Assembly: GCA_040390065.1 (NCBI GenBank)
Contig: JAZJZE010000002.1
Location: 1-64,000 of the forward strand
Length of the DNA: 64,000 nucleotides
Reading direction: 5' to 3'
From: a bacterium
GTDB taxonomy: Archaea; Thermoplasmatota; E2; JACPAO01; JAHFTW01
Numbering within the stretch: the stretch's first letter is position 1; every line of letters begins with the position of its first letter. This document shows, one piece after another, positions 21,590-26,085 of the stretch. Below the pieces are notes generated by a model. The model saw only the letters and a program-made list of their open reading frames with translations, did no database searches and was not told the DNA's origin. The position numbers were made by a program, and so were the translations under genes.

Positions 21590-22065
21590 TTCTGTTGCCA
21601 ACCCTCTGGCGGCTCGGGGAATCGGCGGAGGACGTGTTCTGCAAGGAATTGCCAATCTCTCTTGCGCATGGCGCTCGTCGTCACCCGCAATGCCCTGCTG
21701 TTGCGCCCGCGGACCGTTCGGAACCGCAGGCGGCGCATGTAGGCCCCACGGTAGCCAACCGTATACGACTTGATGCCAACGACCTCGTCGAAGCGGACGG
21801 TCTGGTGGAACCAAAGGACGCCACGCGTAATTTCATCACCATCCACGCGAAATCGTTCGGTGACAGTCCAGGCCAGCACCAAGGGAATGCCGATTGCAAA
21901 GGCCGTCATTCCACAAATCACGGCCGCGGGGCCAAGAGGACTCACGCTGACCAGCGAGCCGAACTTGAAAAGCGCGAACGCAAGGAATCCCAGGAGTCCG
22001 ACGCAATTCACCACGACGCCGAGCGGGGATTGTGCCCATATCACTCGTACGGGCCCGTTTGTCAA
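21586..22065 (-). CDS. Membrane protein, two TM helices plus a bacterial PH-like domain
   Basis: C-terminal 159 aa of the 841-aa track ORF; its TTG start overlaps the purH stop. Confidence 0.6.
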   Translation of the reverse strand: MTNGPVRVIWAQSPLGVVVNCVGLLGFLAFALFKFGSLVSVSPLGPAAVICGMTAFAIGIPLVLAWTVTERFRVDGDEITRGVLWFHQTVRFDEVVGIKSYTVGYRGAYMRRLRFRTVRGRNSRALRVTTSAMRKRDWQFLAEHVLRRFPEPPEGWQQK

Positions 22066-23681
22066 TGCCTGAAACTCCTCTGTCCTGAGAACATCATGGC
22101 AATGCCTTTCTCGTCCGCAGCCCCGATGACTTCGGCGTCCCGAATCGAGCCGCCCGGCTGGACAATCGCAGCCACACCGTGCTCGGCCGCGACGTCGATG
22201 GCGTCGCGGAACGGGAAGAATGCGTCGCTCGCCATGACGCTTCCCTTGATGCGGTCCTTGCCTTTGTGGGTGGCGATGAAGGTGGAGTCGACGCGGGCGG
22301 TTTGGCCGCCGCCGATGCCGACGGTTCTCGTGCCTTGGACGAAGACGACGGCGTTGCTGCGGATGTGCTTGACGCAGCGCGCGGCGAAGAGGAGGCTCTC
22401 CATTTGCGGCTTCGTGGGCGTGGTCTTCGTGACGGATTTCCACGAGGCGACGTCGTAGGGTTTGAGGTCGCGGTCCTGGACGAGGAGGCCGCCGGTGACG
22501 GTGCGGACCTGGGTGCCGCTGCGGTTGTGTGGGCGGTCGAGTCCGGGGAGTTCGAGGAGGCGCAGGTTCTTGCGTTTCTCCATGTGCGCAAGGGCGTCCG
22601 CGGCGAATGCTGGTGCGATGACGATTTCGAGGAACAACTCGTCGAGGGCCTTCGCCGTGTCGAGCGTGAATTTGCGGTTGACGCAGACGATGCCGCCGAA
22701 GGGTGAGTACGGGTCGCATGCCAAGGCGTCCTTGTACGCCTGAGTCACGTCCGCAGCGGATGCAATGCCGCACGGTGTGGCGTGCTTGACGATGACGCAC
22801 GTGGCTTTCTCCGGGAATTCCTTCACGCATTCGATGGAGACGTCGGCGTCGAGGATGTTGTTGTAGGAAAGTTGCTTGCCGTGCAACTGCCTCGCGTGGA
22901 TGATGGAGGGCTCCTGCGTGTTGCGGGGCCCGGCCTTCTCGTAGAATGCCGCGCGTTGGTGCTCGTTCTCGCCGTACCGGAGAGTCTCGATGCGGTCGTA
23001 GGCGAACACCAAGTGCTCGGGATAATCGGTGAGGCCGAAGCGCTTCGACAGGACGCGTGCGATGATTGCGTCGTAGCGGGCGGTGTGCTGGAAGGCGCGC
23101 AGTGCAAGTTCCTGGCGGAATGGAAGGGGTACGTCTCCTTTCTCCACGGCCGCCGCGACGGCGTCGTACTGCGACGGGTCCGTGACGACCAGGACGTGGC
23201 GGTGGTTCTTCGCGGCGGCGCGCACGAGGCTCGGGCCGCCGATGTCGATCTGCTCCTCGAGTTCCTCGAGGTCGACGCCCTCCTTCGTCGCCGTCTGCTC
23301 GAACGGGTAGAGGTTCACGACGACGACGTCGATGGGCCGGATGCCGTGCTCCGCCATCGATGCCCGGTGGCCCGCGTCGCCGCGCTTGGCCAGGATGCCG
23401 CCCGCGACCTTGGGGTGCAGCGTCTTGACGCGGCCCTCCATCATCTCGGGGAAGCCGGTGAAGTCGGAGACGTCCTGGACGACCAGCCCGGCTTTCCGGA
23501 GGGCCTGCGCGGTGCCGCCCGTCGAGAGGAGGTGGATGCCCATCTTGGAAAGACGCTTGGCGAAGTCGACGAGGCCTGCCTTGTCGGAAACGGAGAGGAG
23601 TGCAGCCGGGGCGTCCTTGCCGACGGGCTTGACGGGAGGTGCGGCGGCAGGTTTCCCTGCGGGTACGGGCGGGCCGGCCAT
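22062..23681 (-). CDS. purH: Bifunctional AICAR transformylase/IMP cyclohydrolase
   Basis: ALLSVSDK, GRVKTLHPK, IDIGGPSLVRAAAKN, LRYGENEHQ, SDAFFPF and RSFRH. Confidence 0.98.
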   Translation of the reverse strand: MAGPPVPAGKPAAAPPVKPVGKDAPAALLSVSDKAGLVDFAKRLSKMGIHLLSTGGTAQALRKAGLVVQDVSDFTGFPEMMEGRVKTLHPKVAGGILAKRGDAGHRASMAEHGIRPIDVVVVNLYPFEQTATKEGVDLEELEEQIDIGGPSLVRAAAKNHRHVLVVTDPSQYDAVAAAVEKGDVPLPFRQELALRAFQHTARYDAIIARVLSKRFGLTDYPEHLVFAYDRIETLRYGENEHQRAAFYEKAGPRNTQEPSIIHARQLHGKQLSYNNILDADVSIECVKEFPEKATCVIVKHATPCGIASAADVTQAYKDALACDPYSPFGGIVCVNRKFTLDTAKALDELFLEIVIAPAFAADALAHMEKRKNLRLLELPGLDRPHNRSGTQVRTVTGGLLVQDRDLKPYDVASWKSVTKTTPTKPQMESLLFAARCVKHIRSNAVVFVQGTRTVGIGGGQTARVDSTFIATHKGKDRIKGSVMASDAFFPFRDAIDVAAEHGVAAIVQPGGSIRDAEVIGAADEKGIAMMFSGQRSFRH

Positions 23682-23732: not shown

Positions 23733-24101
23733 CTAGCGTCGCTTCTTTCCGAAGGCCGAGTCGAGGGTGGCGATGAGCTCGCTTTCGTCCACGGAGGCGT
23801 CGCCGTCGGAGGCGACGAGTTCCTTGACGGTGGTGAGGAGGGGCTGCTGCAAGTGCGGAGGCACCGTGGCGACGGCTTCGGTGAGGACCGCTTGGACGCC
23901 GTTGCGCCGCATGCGTTCCCCGACGGCCTTCATGGCGGCCTCGAGGGATTCCGACGCCCAAAGTTCGGGGAATTCGGCAAGGCAGCCGCGCAAGGTGTCG
24001 TTCTCCTCTTGCGTCACGGAGCCGTCGCCGAAGACGGCCTGGGAGGCGATGGCGGCCACGGCTTGGCCAGGAGTGAGGGGGAGGTTGGTGCGGACGCCCA
24101 T
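23733..24101 (-). CDS. TerB-like family protein
   Basis: GDGSVTQEE ... SDGDASVDESELI tandem motifs. Confidence 0.7.
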   Translation of the reverse strand: MGVRTNLPLTPGQAVAAIASQAVFGDGSVTQEENDTLRGCLAEFPELWASESLEAAMKAVGERMRRNGVQAVLTEAVATVPPHLQQPLLTTVKELVASDGDASVDESELIATLDSAFGKKRR

Positions 24102-24156: not shown

Positions 24157-24690
24157 CTAAGAGTCGACGTACTCGAAATTCTTCGAGTTCACCCAGGCGA
24201 TGAGGTCGAGGGCCACGTCGCAGGATTCCGCGACCTCGGGGTGGGGGTCGTGGCGGTGCCGTTCGAGCACCGGGATGGATTCGCTCTGGCCGATTGCGCC
24301 AAGGGCTTCGGCGCATTCGTGGCGCACCATGACGTGTTCGTCCGGCTTGTCCAGGACCGCCGTGAGGAACGGCACGGCGTGCGGGTCCTGCATCTGTCCC
24401 ATCACGTAGGCGACTTCGTGGCGCAGGAGGGCGGACGGGTCGTCGAAGCAAGCCGCCAGCGCCTCGACGGCGTCGGGCCCGCCAAGGTTGCGCAGCGTGA
24501 AGACGCAGCGCATGCGTTGGAACATGGGCAGGTGCACGTCGGTGAGGCGGGCGCGCAACTCGGCCACTTTGCCGCGATGGGCCGCGTACGGGCCATCCAG
24601 AGGCGGGGCCGGATCGACGCTGGTGTAGCCGGCGTCGGCGATGGTGCCCGCTGGCACGTTCCGGTTCACGAGCGCTTTCCAGCCTTGCAC
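24157..24690 (-). CDS. Half-size deoxyhypusine hydroxylase (DOHH)-like HEAT-repeat protein
   Basis: YTSVDPAPP, PMFQRMRCVFTLRNLGG, SALLRHEVAYVMGQMQ, MVRHECAEALGAIG, ESCDVALD and FEYVD. GTG start at 24690 or 24669. Confidence 0.85.
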   Translation of the reverse strand: MQGWKALVNRNVPAGTIADAGYTSVDPAPPLDGPYAAHRGKVAELRARLTDVHLPMFQRMRCVFTLRNLGGPDAVEALAACFDDPSALLRHEVAYVMGQMQDPHAVPFLTAVLDKPDEHVMVRHECAEALGAIGQSESIPVLERHRHDPHPEVAESCDVALDLIAWVNSKNFEYVDS

Positions 24691-24694
24691 TGAT

Positions 24695-26038
24695 TTAGGG
24701 CTTGCGGCCCGTCGAATGGCGTCGCAGGAGGGCCACCGCCATGAGGCCCGCGAACGCCGGCGCAATTGGCAGGTTGGTGGAGTGCGGCGGCGTCGACGAC
24801 GACGTTGACGCGGGGCCGGTGCCGGGCAGGAGGGCCGCGTCGTGCACGTAGCCGTAGTGCCCGAGGCTTCCGGTGCGTGCCGCGTAGTAGGCGACCGTGC
24901 CGCCGATGCGCGCTTCCGTGTCGTAGCCCGCGACAAGGAGGTCTTTGCCACCGGCCTCGACCTCGAGGGCGGCAAGGGTGTCCGTCGGCTGGTGGTAGTG
25001 CGGATACTCCGCATCGTGGCTGCCTTGGATGCGCATACCGGCATGGCCCATCGCGATGAGCGGGACGTGGTCGCTGCGGCCGTACGCGTCGTCGTACACC
25101 CAAATGTACTGCGGGGGAAGGCGCAGGAGGTCGTAGGCGACTTCGCGCACGAGGAACTGGTAGTTCGTGTTGTTCGCGAGGATGGCCGGGAAGTCCGGCC
25201 TCGCCTTGAGGTCCTGGTAGCACCCGTACGAGAAGCAGGCCCAGTCGTCGTCGGCGTGGATGGGCGCGGTGCGCAGGTTCAGGACCGCCGTCTTGGAGAC
25301 GTCGGTGGCGTTGCCGTATTGCACCCAGTTGTTCATGGCCGGGTAGTTGAGGCCCGGCATGTCGAAGGATTGCGACAGCAGGATGTCAATGCGGTCCGTC
25401 GCGTTCAACCCAAGGAGGCCCGCGGCGACAGAGTGGTCCTTGGCAAATGCGATGGACCCGTACAAGCCCCACTCCTCGCCGTCGTACCAGAGGAAGACGA
25501 CGGTGGCCTCGAGCGTCTGGCGGTCGCTTGCCGCCTTGAACGCTCGGGCCAGTTCACGCACCGTGCAGATGCCGGAGGCGTTGTCGAGGGCGCCGCCGCC
25601 GAACGTCGCCTCGCGCGTGTCATAATGACCGCCGACGACCACCCATCGTTGCAAGTCGCGGCCTGGCAGGACGCCGACGATGTTGGTGCCGCCCGTCGGG
25701 ACCGTGACGCCGACACCGGGGCCGCCGTCCGTGAAGGTCTGCAGAGCCGTCTTGAGCCCGAGTTCTCCAAACACGTTGCGGTACTTCGCCACGAAGGCAT
25801 CATGCGTCGGCGTCCCCATCAGCCGGTAGCTGTCGGGAGCGCCCAGCGTCACGTCCGAGACGCAAGCGTGGATGCTGGCACCGGAGACGTCGGCAGCCAA
25901 GGCCCGCAGATCCGCGACTGTCGCATTGCCGTCGAGCTCGAACGGGACCCCATCCGTCACGGCGTCCGCCGCGCCCGGAGCTTGGGCGCCGGCCGGCAGG
26001 GCGACGAGCAAGACGACGGCCGCGACGACAATGCGCAT
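24695..26038 (-). CDS. Secreted M28-family metallopeptidase with a C-terminal membrane anchor
   Basis: GGHYDT, GALDNASG, DGEEWGLYGS, RSDH and YHQPTDT; hydrophobic and basic tail. Confidence 0.92.
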   Translation of the reverse strand: MRIVVAAVVLLVALPAGAQAPGAADAVTDGVPFELDGNATVADLRALAADVSGASIHACVSDVTLGAPDSYRLMGTPTHDAFVAKYRNVFGELGLKTALQTFTDGGPGVGVTVPTGGTNIVGVLPGRDLQRWVVVGGHYDTREATFGGGALDNASGICTVRELARAFKAASDRQTLEATVVFLWYDGEEWGLYGSIAFAKDHSVAAGLLGLNATDRIDILLSQSFDMPGLNYPAMNNWVQYGNATDVSKTAVLNLRTAPIHADDDWACFSYGCYQDLKARPDFPAILANNTNYQFLVREVAYDLLRLPPQYIWVYDDAYGRSDHVPLIAMGHAGMRIQGSHDAEYPHYHQPTDTLAALEVEAGGKDLLVAGYDTEARIGGTVAYYAARTGSLGHYGYVHDAALLPGTGPASTSSSTPPHSTNLPIAPAFAGLMAVALLRRHSTGRKP

Positions 26039-26085
26039 CGGCCGTGGACGCCAACCCCCGCACATCTACGTGATGGTGGCCAACC

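Follow-up and report, generated by a model that had tools for sequence, protein, structure and literature searches.

Deoxyhypusine hydroxylase (DOHH, EC 1.14.99.29) is the eukaryotic enzyme responsible for the O2-dependent conversion of deoxyhypusine to hypusine, and the corresponding hydroxylase of bacterial elongation factor P (EF-P) is EpmC. The DOHHs of human (PDB 4d4z/4d50) and yeast (Lia1) are single chains of about 300 aa with eight HEAT repeats in a pseudo-symmetric dyad and four His-Glu motifs. H56, H89, E90, H207, H240 and E241 are given as the iron ligands of the human enzyme (PMC3306375), and the four His-Glu sites are described as cooperating across both arms of the DOHH dyad (PMC8153317). 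As for archaea, four papers from 2012 (PMC3306375), 2016 (PMC5178350), 2018 (PMC6105217) and 2021 (PMC8153317) agree that deoxyhypusine synthase (DHS) is present there and that no DOHH orthologue had been found; a bifunctional DHS proposed for Trichomonas vaginalis is cited in PMC6105217. Here we describe a half-size DOHH homologue of 170-177 aa, encoded on the minus strand of a 64,000-nucleotide (nt) stretch of DNA (the window, positions 1 to 64,000 of contig JAZJZE010000002.1) in the Thermoplasmatota assembly GCA_040390065.1. A first note on this DNA, made from its letters and hereafter called the sequence-only reading, had already seen a half-size DOHH in this gene and had stated, in agreement with the four papers, that archaea are described as lacking the enzyme.

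In our assessment, this protein probably works as a homodimeric di-iron DOHH acting on deoxyhypusine carried by the archaeal initiation factor 5A (aIF5A). Compared with the eukaryotic enzyme, it shows the same HEAT fold and the same His-Glu pairs at iron-ligand positions 33 residues apart, together with the motifs SALL(K/R)HE, MVRHE, ESCEVALD and SVDPAPP and a core identity of 44-48% to each half. On the other hand, its chain has 170 aa, four repeats and two His-Glu motifs in place of about 300 aa, eight and four, and it comes from an archaeal host with aIF5A as the presumed substrate. The bifunctional DHS proposed for T. vaginalis and EpmC would reach the same outcome, a hydroxyl on an extended lysine, but with proteins unrelated to the archaeal half, which, unlike them, is directly homologous to the canonical eukaryotic enzyme. 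Altogether, the half-size protein adds a new structural variant to a known enzyme family; uncultured archaea of high abundance carry it widely, and only automatic pipelines have given it a name. Archaeal members are called 'deoxyhypusine monooxygenase' by IMG, fall into 'putative DOHH' clusters in the ESM Atlas and bear the NCBI name 'HEAT repeat domain-containing protein', so that the link with DOHH had already been made by automatic annotation. Within the open literature, a corpus that leaves subscription journals and supplements outside, no paper on an archaeal or a homodimeric DOHH was recognisable by its title or the opening of its abstract.

Judged by its sequence, the window protein is a clear homologue of eukaryotic DOHH. 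A phmmer search against PDB sequences reached human DOHH with an E value of 2.5e-68 and matched it twice, through the N half (115.5 bits) and through the linker plus the C half (119.5 bits), natural HEAT proteins being more than 50 orders of magnitude weaker (E 1e-13 to 0.3). The AlphaFold2 model of the 170-aa form (predicted local distance difference test, pLDDT, 89.9; predicted template modelling score, pTM, 0.84) consists of nine helices and, together with Pfam and Foldseek, indicates the all-helical HEAT fold with four repeats that characterises each half of DOHH. The top Foldseek match of this model was again human DOHH (4d4z, E 4.2e-11, query TM-score 0.78, 47-50% identity), followed by artificial alphaRep proteins at E values of about 2e-05. 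In the same line, a profile built from 128 archaeal halves scored 140-171 bits against eukaryotic N halves and 176-211 bits against C halves, and phmmer, profile bits and trees alike show no other HEAT family to be as close to the protein as DOHH. The motifs listed in the sequence-only reading (YTSVDPAPP, FQRMRCVFTLRNLGG, SALLRHEVAYVMGQ, MVRHECAEALGAIG, ESCDVALD and FEYVD) are all found in the translation, and their assignment to the linker and C half of DOHH is borne out by the alignment with the human enzyme, which includes both.

The family models alone would tell a different story. Pfam reports only the generic domains HEAT_2 (4.1e-23) and HEAT_PBS, and NCBIfam, where the DOHH-half family is without a model, returns sub-threshold matches to NblB (38.5 bits for a cut-off of 300) and CpcE (19.2 bits for a cut-off of 330). 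These hits and the NCBI name of the relatives would suit a non-catalytic scaffold of the phycobilisome (PBS)-lyase type that merely resembles DOHH, a possibility that we regard as extremely improbable. With the archaeal profile, no segment of 15 giant generic HEAT_PBS proteins scored above 60 bits, in contrast to the 140-211 bits of eukaryotic DOHH halves; their best segments showed almost no RHE motifs, and in the outgroup rows of the alignment Arg and a variable residue stand in place of His-Glu, whereas both pairs are invariant in the archaeal halves. Moreover, in the phylogeny with separated N and C halves and generic HEAT proteins, the archaeal halves do not group with the PBS-lyase HEAT proteins but join the DOHH halves, apart from the outgroup, with branch supports of 99/99 or 99/100 in both careful trees. 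The low profile bits, the missing His-Glu pairs of the outgroup and the separate clade led us to reject the generic reading. The described PBS-lyase HEAT-like proteins, that is, CpcE, NblB, Escherichia coli YibA, MTH187 and the derived alphaReps, have the repeat type (HEAT_2/HEAT_PBS) and, in some cases, the size (about 130-200 aa) in common with the archaeal half but differ from it in the absence of His-Glu pairs and of the SVDPAPP tail, and in forming a clade of their own.

A closer view of the conserved positions points to the active site of DOHH. The two His-Glu pairs, H84-E85 and H117-E118 in the numbering of the 170-aa form, are 33 residues apart, which is the spacing within each eukaryotic half. 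H84/E85 align with human H56/E57 and H207/E208, and H117/E118 with H89/E90 and H240/E241 (the PDB chain index equals the native number plus 5), so that both motifs sit at the positions of the human iron ligands, as had been proposed. Across 106 aligned archaeal halves, the invariant residues include D19, P20, H84, E85, G91, H117, E118, E145, S149 and C150. The motif YTSVDPAPP aligns with Y-x-SVDPAPP of the inter-domain linker of human DOHH, and its Asp and Pro are invariant in the same 106 halves. Since each chain carries two His-Glu motifs, four can only be brought together in a dimer, and since the eukaryotic enzyme is one chain and the archaeal one is half its size, the archaeal two-iron site must form between two chains.

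Such a dimer was predicted by the model, in agreement with the homodimer with histidines at its interface that had been proposed from the letters. Prediction with two copies of the protein, an own alignment of 106 rows and two Fe included gave an interface score (ipSAE) of 0.83 (0.82, 0.84 and 0.83 in the individual runs), compared with 0.00 for the best of three controls; at least 70% of the contacts agreed between runs and the pLDDT of the partner was at least 83. The predicted symmetric interface comprises residues 48-50, 53, 79-81, 84, 112-114, 117, 144-145, 148-149, 151-152, 155-156 and 159, and holds H84, H117, M114, E145, E148 and S149 of both chains, several of them invariant. The model would thereby place H84 and H117 of both chains where a two-iron centre between halves is expected, the iron itself being unscored and a memory of the human structure possible. 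In the mechanism that we propose, two chains would come together around a two-fold axis, concave face to concave face, each giving His84, His117 and Glu118 to one iron, and the dimer would rebuild the four-His-Glu two-iron centre that eukaryotic DOHH forms between its N and C domains. With Glu85 and Gly91 at the positions of what would be the eukaryotic substrate-binding residues, the dimer and O2 might then hydroxylate the deoxyhypusine built by DHS on the Lys of the aIF5A loop KPGKHG to give hypusine. The iron binding, the substrate and the reaction of the window protein are what we infer.

Half size is the rule in the archaeal family and no accident. The window genome (2.68 Mb in 50 contigs, 89% complete, 0.3% contamination) contains one match, and a survey of 401 sampled Thermoplasmatota genomes (threshold E <= 1e-20) found the gene in 107 of them, including 54 of the 262 high-quality genomes, and in 33 of 162 genera. 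Nearly all positive genomes carry a single copy, in open frames of about 159-215 aa. A fused archaeal form was not seen among the best 120 of 1299 longer matches, where all named proteins of 311-2000 aa are eukaryotic. The gene is unevenly spread: it occurs in 17 of the 18 genomes of the window's family, in 22/36 and 51/58 of two further families and in 7/9 of another, and in none of several large ones (0/54, 0/48, 0/24 and 0/14). The records of the holders are labelled as Thermoplasmatota, Poseidoniales, Thalassarchaeaceae or Marine Group II metagenome-assembled genomes (MAGs). Contamination is not the source of the gene, whose GC content of 0.67-0.70 equals that of its flanks and which is also present in two single-contig genomes (G037 and G185). 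A scan of contigs with close patterns retrieved, in the best 80 of 132 loci, only Thermoplasmatota-type records, with no direct search of Asgard archaea or other phyla, and when a divergent half served as the query of a protein search, the only named archaea were once more those of Thermoplasmatota-type records. No such gene appeared among the named matches for Sulfolobus and other Thermoproteota, whose hypusine is left unexplained by the half-size gene.

Some individual records stand at the margins of this distribution. Two MAGs labelled 'uncultured Halobacteriales archaeon' (L034 and L039) carry the gene at 87% and 78% identity; the first has the same M28/purH neighbours as the window and the second has purH and one unnamed neighbour cluster in common with it, and both labels are probably wrong. 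The ESM Atlas lists HEAT clusters of 164-170 aa from Bathyarchaeota and Nitrososphaerota with a score of 0.96, drawn from language-model features. One copy from Poseidoniales (L130, G267:C122:4359-4766) has in-frame TAG and TAA stops and altered motifs, with its mqn neighbour still adjoining, and from its sequence appears to be a pseudogene.

The remaining components of the hypusine pathway are found in the same genome, where family models recognise two DHS-family genes (PF01916, 339.7 and 230 bits) and an aIF5A (TIGR00037, 143 bits) with the loop SKPGKHGASKAR, as anticipated. The distribution of the gene follows that of oxygen respiration, since 102 of the 107 gene-positive genomes encode haem-copper oxidase subunit I and only 5 of the 227 genomes without this subunit carry the gene, counts that are not independent because the sampled genomes are related. 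This co-occurrence is as expected for an O2-dependent enzyme, the conversion of deoxyhypusine to hypusine being here the predicted activity. The second DHS-family gene (L003:1138-2622, G000:C4:35859-36785) is divergent, with an N-terminal extension and a Lys-rich C-terminal tail, and possibly encodes either a further DHS or an enzyme resembling homospermidine synthase.

Homology, half size, single copy, ligand conservation, the presence of DHS and aIF5A and the restriction to oxygen-respiring lineages are directly supported. Several points, on the other hand, speak against or limit the assignment as aIF5A hydroxylase. The substrate-binding role given to Glu85 and Gly91 is a presumed one, taken from mutagenesis reported for their eukaryotic equivalents. 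The homodimer passed a calibration mark that had been reached by 20 of 30 proteins solved as one-chain pairs, while only one of 23 solved single chains did so, in a setup from which ours differs by its own alignment and the two iron ions. Perhaps the model passed because it remembers the solved structure of human DOHH; since the domains of human DOHH form the same kind of interface, the pass shows likeness and not binding. There are also 72 oxidase-positive genomes without the gene, which is therefore dispensable for aerobic life in Thermoplasmatota. Furthermore, tblastn with the organism's own aIF5A and both DHS paralogues detected no linkage to aIF5A or DHS in any of 130 loci (1,016,029 bases). 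According to PMC5178350, amino-acid analyses of cultured Euryarchaeota including 'thermoplasmales' detected deoxyhypusine and little or no hypusine. Finally, in 76 loci of Poseidoniales (families f12 and f30) the half-size gene lies inside a cluster of the futalosine pathway, a position that hints at another role for the protein. In this cluster a PF02621 gene of the MqnA/MqnD family (VitK2_biosynth, 216 bits) is found on the same strand at a median of 34 nt upstream, a second PF02621 gene (145 bits) is convergent, and a radical-SAM gene of the CofH/MqnC type is close by. The primase small subunit and transketolase halves are also seen near the gene in the Marine Group II cluster.

Such surroundings, and the lack of linkage to aIF5A or DHS, would be accommodated if the protein, still a di-iron hydroxylase with the DOHH fold, had a substrate other than aIF5A, for instance in a menaquinone (futalosine) step or in a quinone modification. 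We hold this to be unlikely, because the phyletic patterns do not match: all the loci with the PF02621 and radical-SAM genes around the half-size gene belong to Poseidoniales, whereas neither the window genome nor the 18 other genomes of its family gave a PF02621 match, although the half-size gene is present in 17 of these 18; conversely, none of the 25 PF02621-positive genomes of family f37 is among the 107 positives. In other families the neighbours are unrelated to one another (M28/TerB/purH, PurU-like, SfsA, CLC channel, VIT1, Hsp20 and DEAD helicase genes). This mismatch and the differing neighbours elsewhere make local gene order the most likely basis of the mqn link. An unchanged substrate would moreover fit the identity of 44-48% that the protein shows to either eukaryotic half, as well as the retention of all ligand and pocket positions. 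At a single locus of family f21 (L117:616-1422), a VIT1-family iron transporter gene (PF01988, 6.2e-59) lies on the same strand 73 nt upstream, an adjacency that may reflect a link to iron supply.

The origin of the half-size proteins was approached by comparing them with both halves of the eukaryotic enzyme. Over 124 core columns and 175 eukaryotic proteins, the archaeal halves show 44.4% identity to N halves and 47.7% to C halves, while the N and C halves within one eukaryotic protein are 40.5% identical; this N-C value lies below the archaeal mean for N in 162 of the 175 proteins and below that for C in 168. Among the consensus sites defined in all three sets, 41 are common, the archaeal residue equals C against N at five sites and N against C at another five, and there is no site where N and C share a residue that differs from the archaeal one. 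By this even split, the archaeal sequence looks like the midpoint of the two halves. The Y-x-SVDPAPP tail and the C-terminal F-x-Y flank are found only with the C half in eukaryotes, and the archaeal halves have both, which fits either a C-half origin or a loss from the N copy after fusion.

Trees gave a consistent position but a shifting root. In a quick tree of 97 rows without outgroup, N halves (Shimodaira-Hasegawa-like approximate likelihood ratio test, SH-aLRT, 82) and C halves (89) were split with the archaeal rows between them. A careful rooted tree of 81 rows, with ten segments of giant HEAT_PBS proteins as outgroup, recovered N (97/79), C (100/99) and the outgroup (99/99) as clades in the backbone (N,(archaeal A,(archaeal B,C)93/66)74/55), the archaeal rows never forming one clade in the bootstraps. 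The approximately unbiased (AU) test rejected neither N and C as one clade (delta lnL 5.1, p-AU 0.385) nor archaeal monophyly (delta lnL 10.6, p 0.28). For a second careful tree, 15 named eukaryotes were taken from Opisthokonta, Amoebozoa, Apusozoa and Archaeplastida (Acropora was dropped for its three domain hits). This tree kept the C halves together (97/90) as well as 14 of the 15 N halves, that of Porphyridium being a stray, and showed the N and C groups as sisters (77/86) within a grade of archaeal rows, with the root among archaeal rows at supports of 13-25. Given that the root shifts between the careful trees and that the AU test rejects neither arrangement, we draw no polarity from them. 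What is stable is that the archaeal halves lie outside both eukaryotic crown clades on short branches, and their place at the hub between the N-half and C-half clades makes a recent transfer from a sampled crown eukaryote unlikely. In this regard, the sequence-only reading had offered a pre-duplication form of DOHH or a eukaryote-to-archaeon transfer; the trees argue against the recent version of the latter, and the pair leaves out a transfer from archaeon to eukaryote. The archaeal halves could possibly represent a pre-duplication form, a derivative of a stem C half or the lineage of a donor.

It is conceivable, if somewhat doubtful, that these proteins of 160-170 aa are living representatives of a homodimeric ancestor of DOHH, from which the eukaryotic eight-repeat enzyme would have arisen by tandem duplication and fusion, possibly of a gene from an aerobic archaeon. 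It is equally conceivable, and equally doubtful, that the archaeal gene is the linker plus C half of an already duplicated DOHH, acquired from a stem eukaryote in an ancient transfer and then spread among aerobic Thermoplasmatota. Its collinearity with Y-x-SVDPAPP, the C half and the C-terminal F-x-Y tail, the slightly higher core identity to C than to N, the Thermoplasmatota-type labels of all named holders, and the 81-row tree, where C goes with one archaeal subgroup and N branches first, would be accounted for in this way. Against a derivative of the C half speak the five-to-five division of consensus sites and the lack of sites at which N and C agree against the archaeal residue; the N plus C clade is unrejected, 14 N and 15 C halves are sisters inside the archaeal grade of the second careful tree, and a freshly truncated C half would have needed to function at once as a homodimer. 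If the ancestral homodimer is the correct reading, full hypusination by DHS and DOHH would be no eukaryotic invention, and would be at work today in Marine Group II and relatives, marine archaea of high abundance. The full-length protein with the highest identity (58%) is a two-half DOHH of 309 aa (P0038) encoded on a 31-kb metagenome contig; an attempt to trace its origin yielded 54 loci with relatives at 35-56% identity, among which many split matches suggest introns, and an indecisive density of open reading frames (ORFs).

The half-size gene touches on two open questions, namely the route to hypusine in some archaea and the descent of the eukaryotic enzyme, and provides an expressible DOHH candidate for one large archaeal group. 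Its presence predicts that Marine Group II and its aerobic relatives among the Thermoplasmatota contain fully hydroxylated hypusine, in which they would differ from the cultured euryarchaeota analysed so far. A natural half-enzyme would likewise serve to study how a two-iron site is assembled across a symmetric interface, and a sequence lying between both eukaryotic halves bears on the duplication that made them.

At the locus itself, the ORF 24157-24690 of the minus strand translates into 177 residues plus stop from a GTG at 24688-24690. The initiator Met of close relatives of 168-170 aa aligns with the GTG at 24667-24669, and the 170-aa product is therefore more likely than that of 177 aa. 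The coordinates of the gene, its motifs and its neighbours are collected in Table 1. The sequence-only reading was right in that the upstream M28 gene, with its stop at 24695-24697, leaves no space for an N-terminal half; the intergenic distance that it gave as 5 nt is actually 4 nt before the GTG at 24690, and 25 nt for the 170-aa form. A version of 295 aa from an ATG at 25044 was rejected, as it overlaps the M28 gene out of frame, consists of Arg/Ser/Thr/Pro-rich filler in the added part and has no counterpart in relatives.

Table 1. Coordinates of the half-size DOHH gene, its motifs and neighbouring genes in the window, with example loci of the futalosine cluster from other genomes
Feature	Position	Strand	Remarks
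Half-size DOHH homologue, likeliest coding sequence	24157..24669	-	170 aa; GTG 24667-24669, stop 24157-24159
Possible 7-codon N-terminal extension (177-aa form)	24670..24690	-	alternative GTG 24688-24690; not conserved in relatives
YTSVDPAPP, N-terminal tail motif	24601..24627	-	residues 22-30 of the 177-aa form; aligns with human DOHH linker
First His-Glu motif, H84-E85 (170-aa numbering)	24415..24420	-	codons CAC GAA
Second His-Glu motif, H117-E118 (170-aa numbering)	24316..24321	-	codons CAC GAA
Upstream neighbour, M28-family peptidase	24695..26065	-	Pfam Peptidase_M28, 2.3e-26; stop TAA 24695-24697
Downstream neighbour, TerB-domain protein	23733..24101	-	122 aa; PF05099, 3.3e-07; context
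purH-like ORF, further downstream	22062..23681	-	539 aa; named from reading the translation, no family scan; context
Futalosine-cluster example loci	L070:6001-6441, L105:4909-5967, L113:4850-5833, L085:7256-8698		76 Poseidoniales loci in all

With regard to the neighbours, clustering of the flanking genes showed that 20 related loci have the purH-like ORF among the neighbours of the half-size gene. The end of the M28 peptidase consists of a stretch rich in Ser/Thr/Pro, then a hydrophobic segment and finally a basic tail (…PIAPAFAGLMAVALLRRHSTGRKP), an arrangement that looks like the C-terminal membrane anchor of a secreted archaeal protein.

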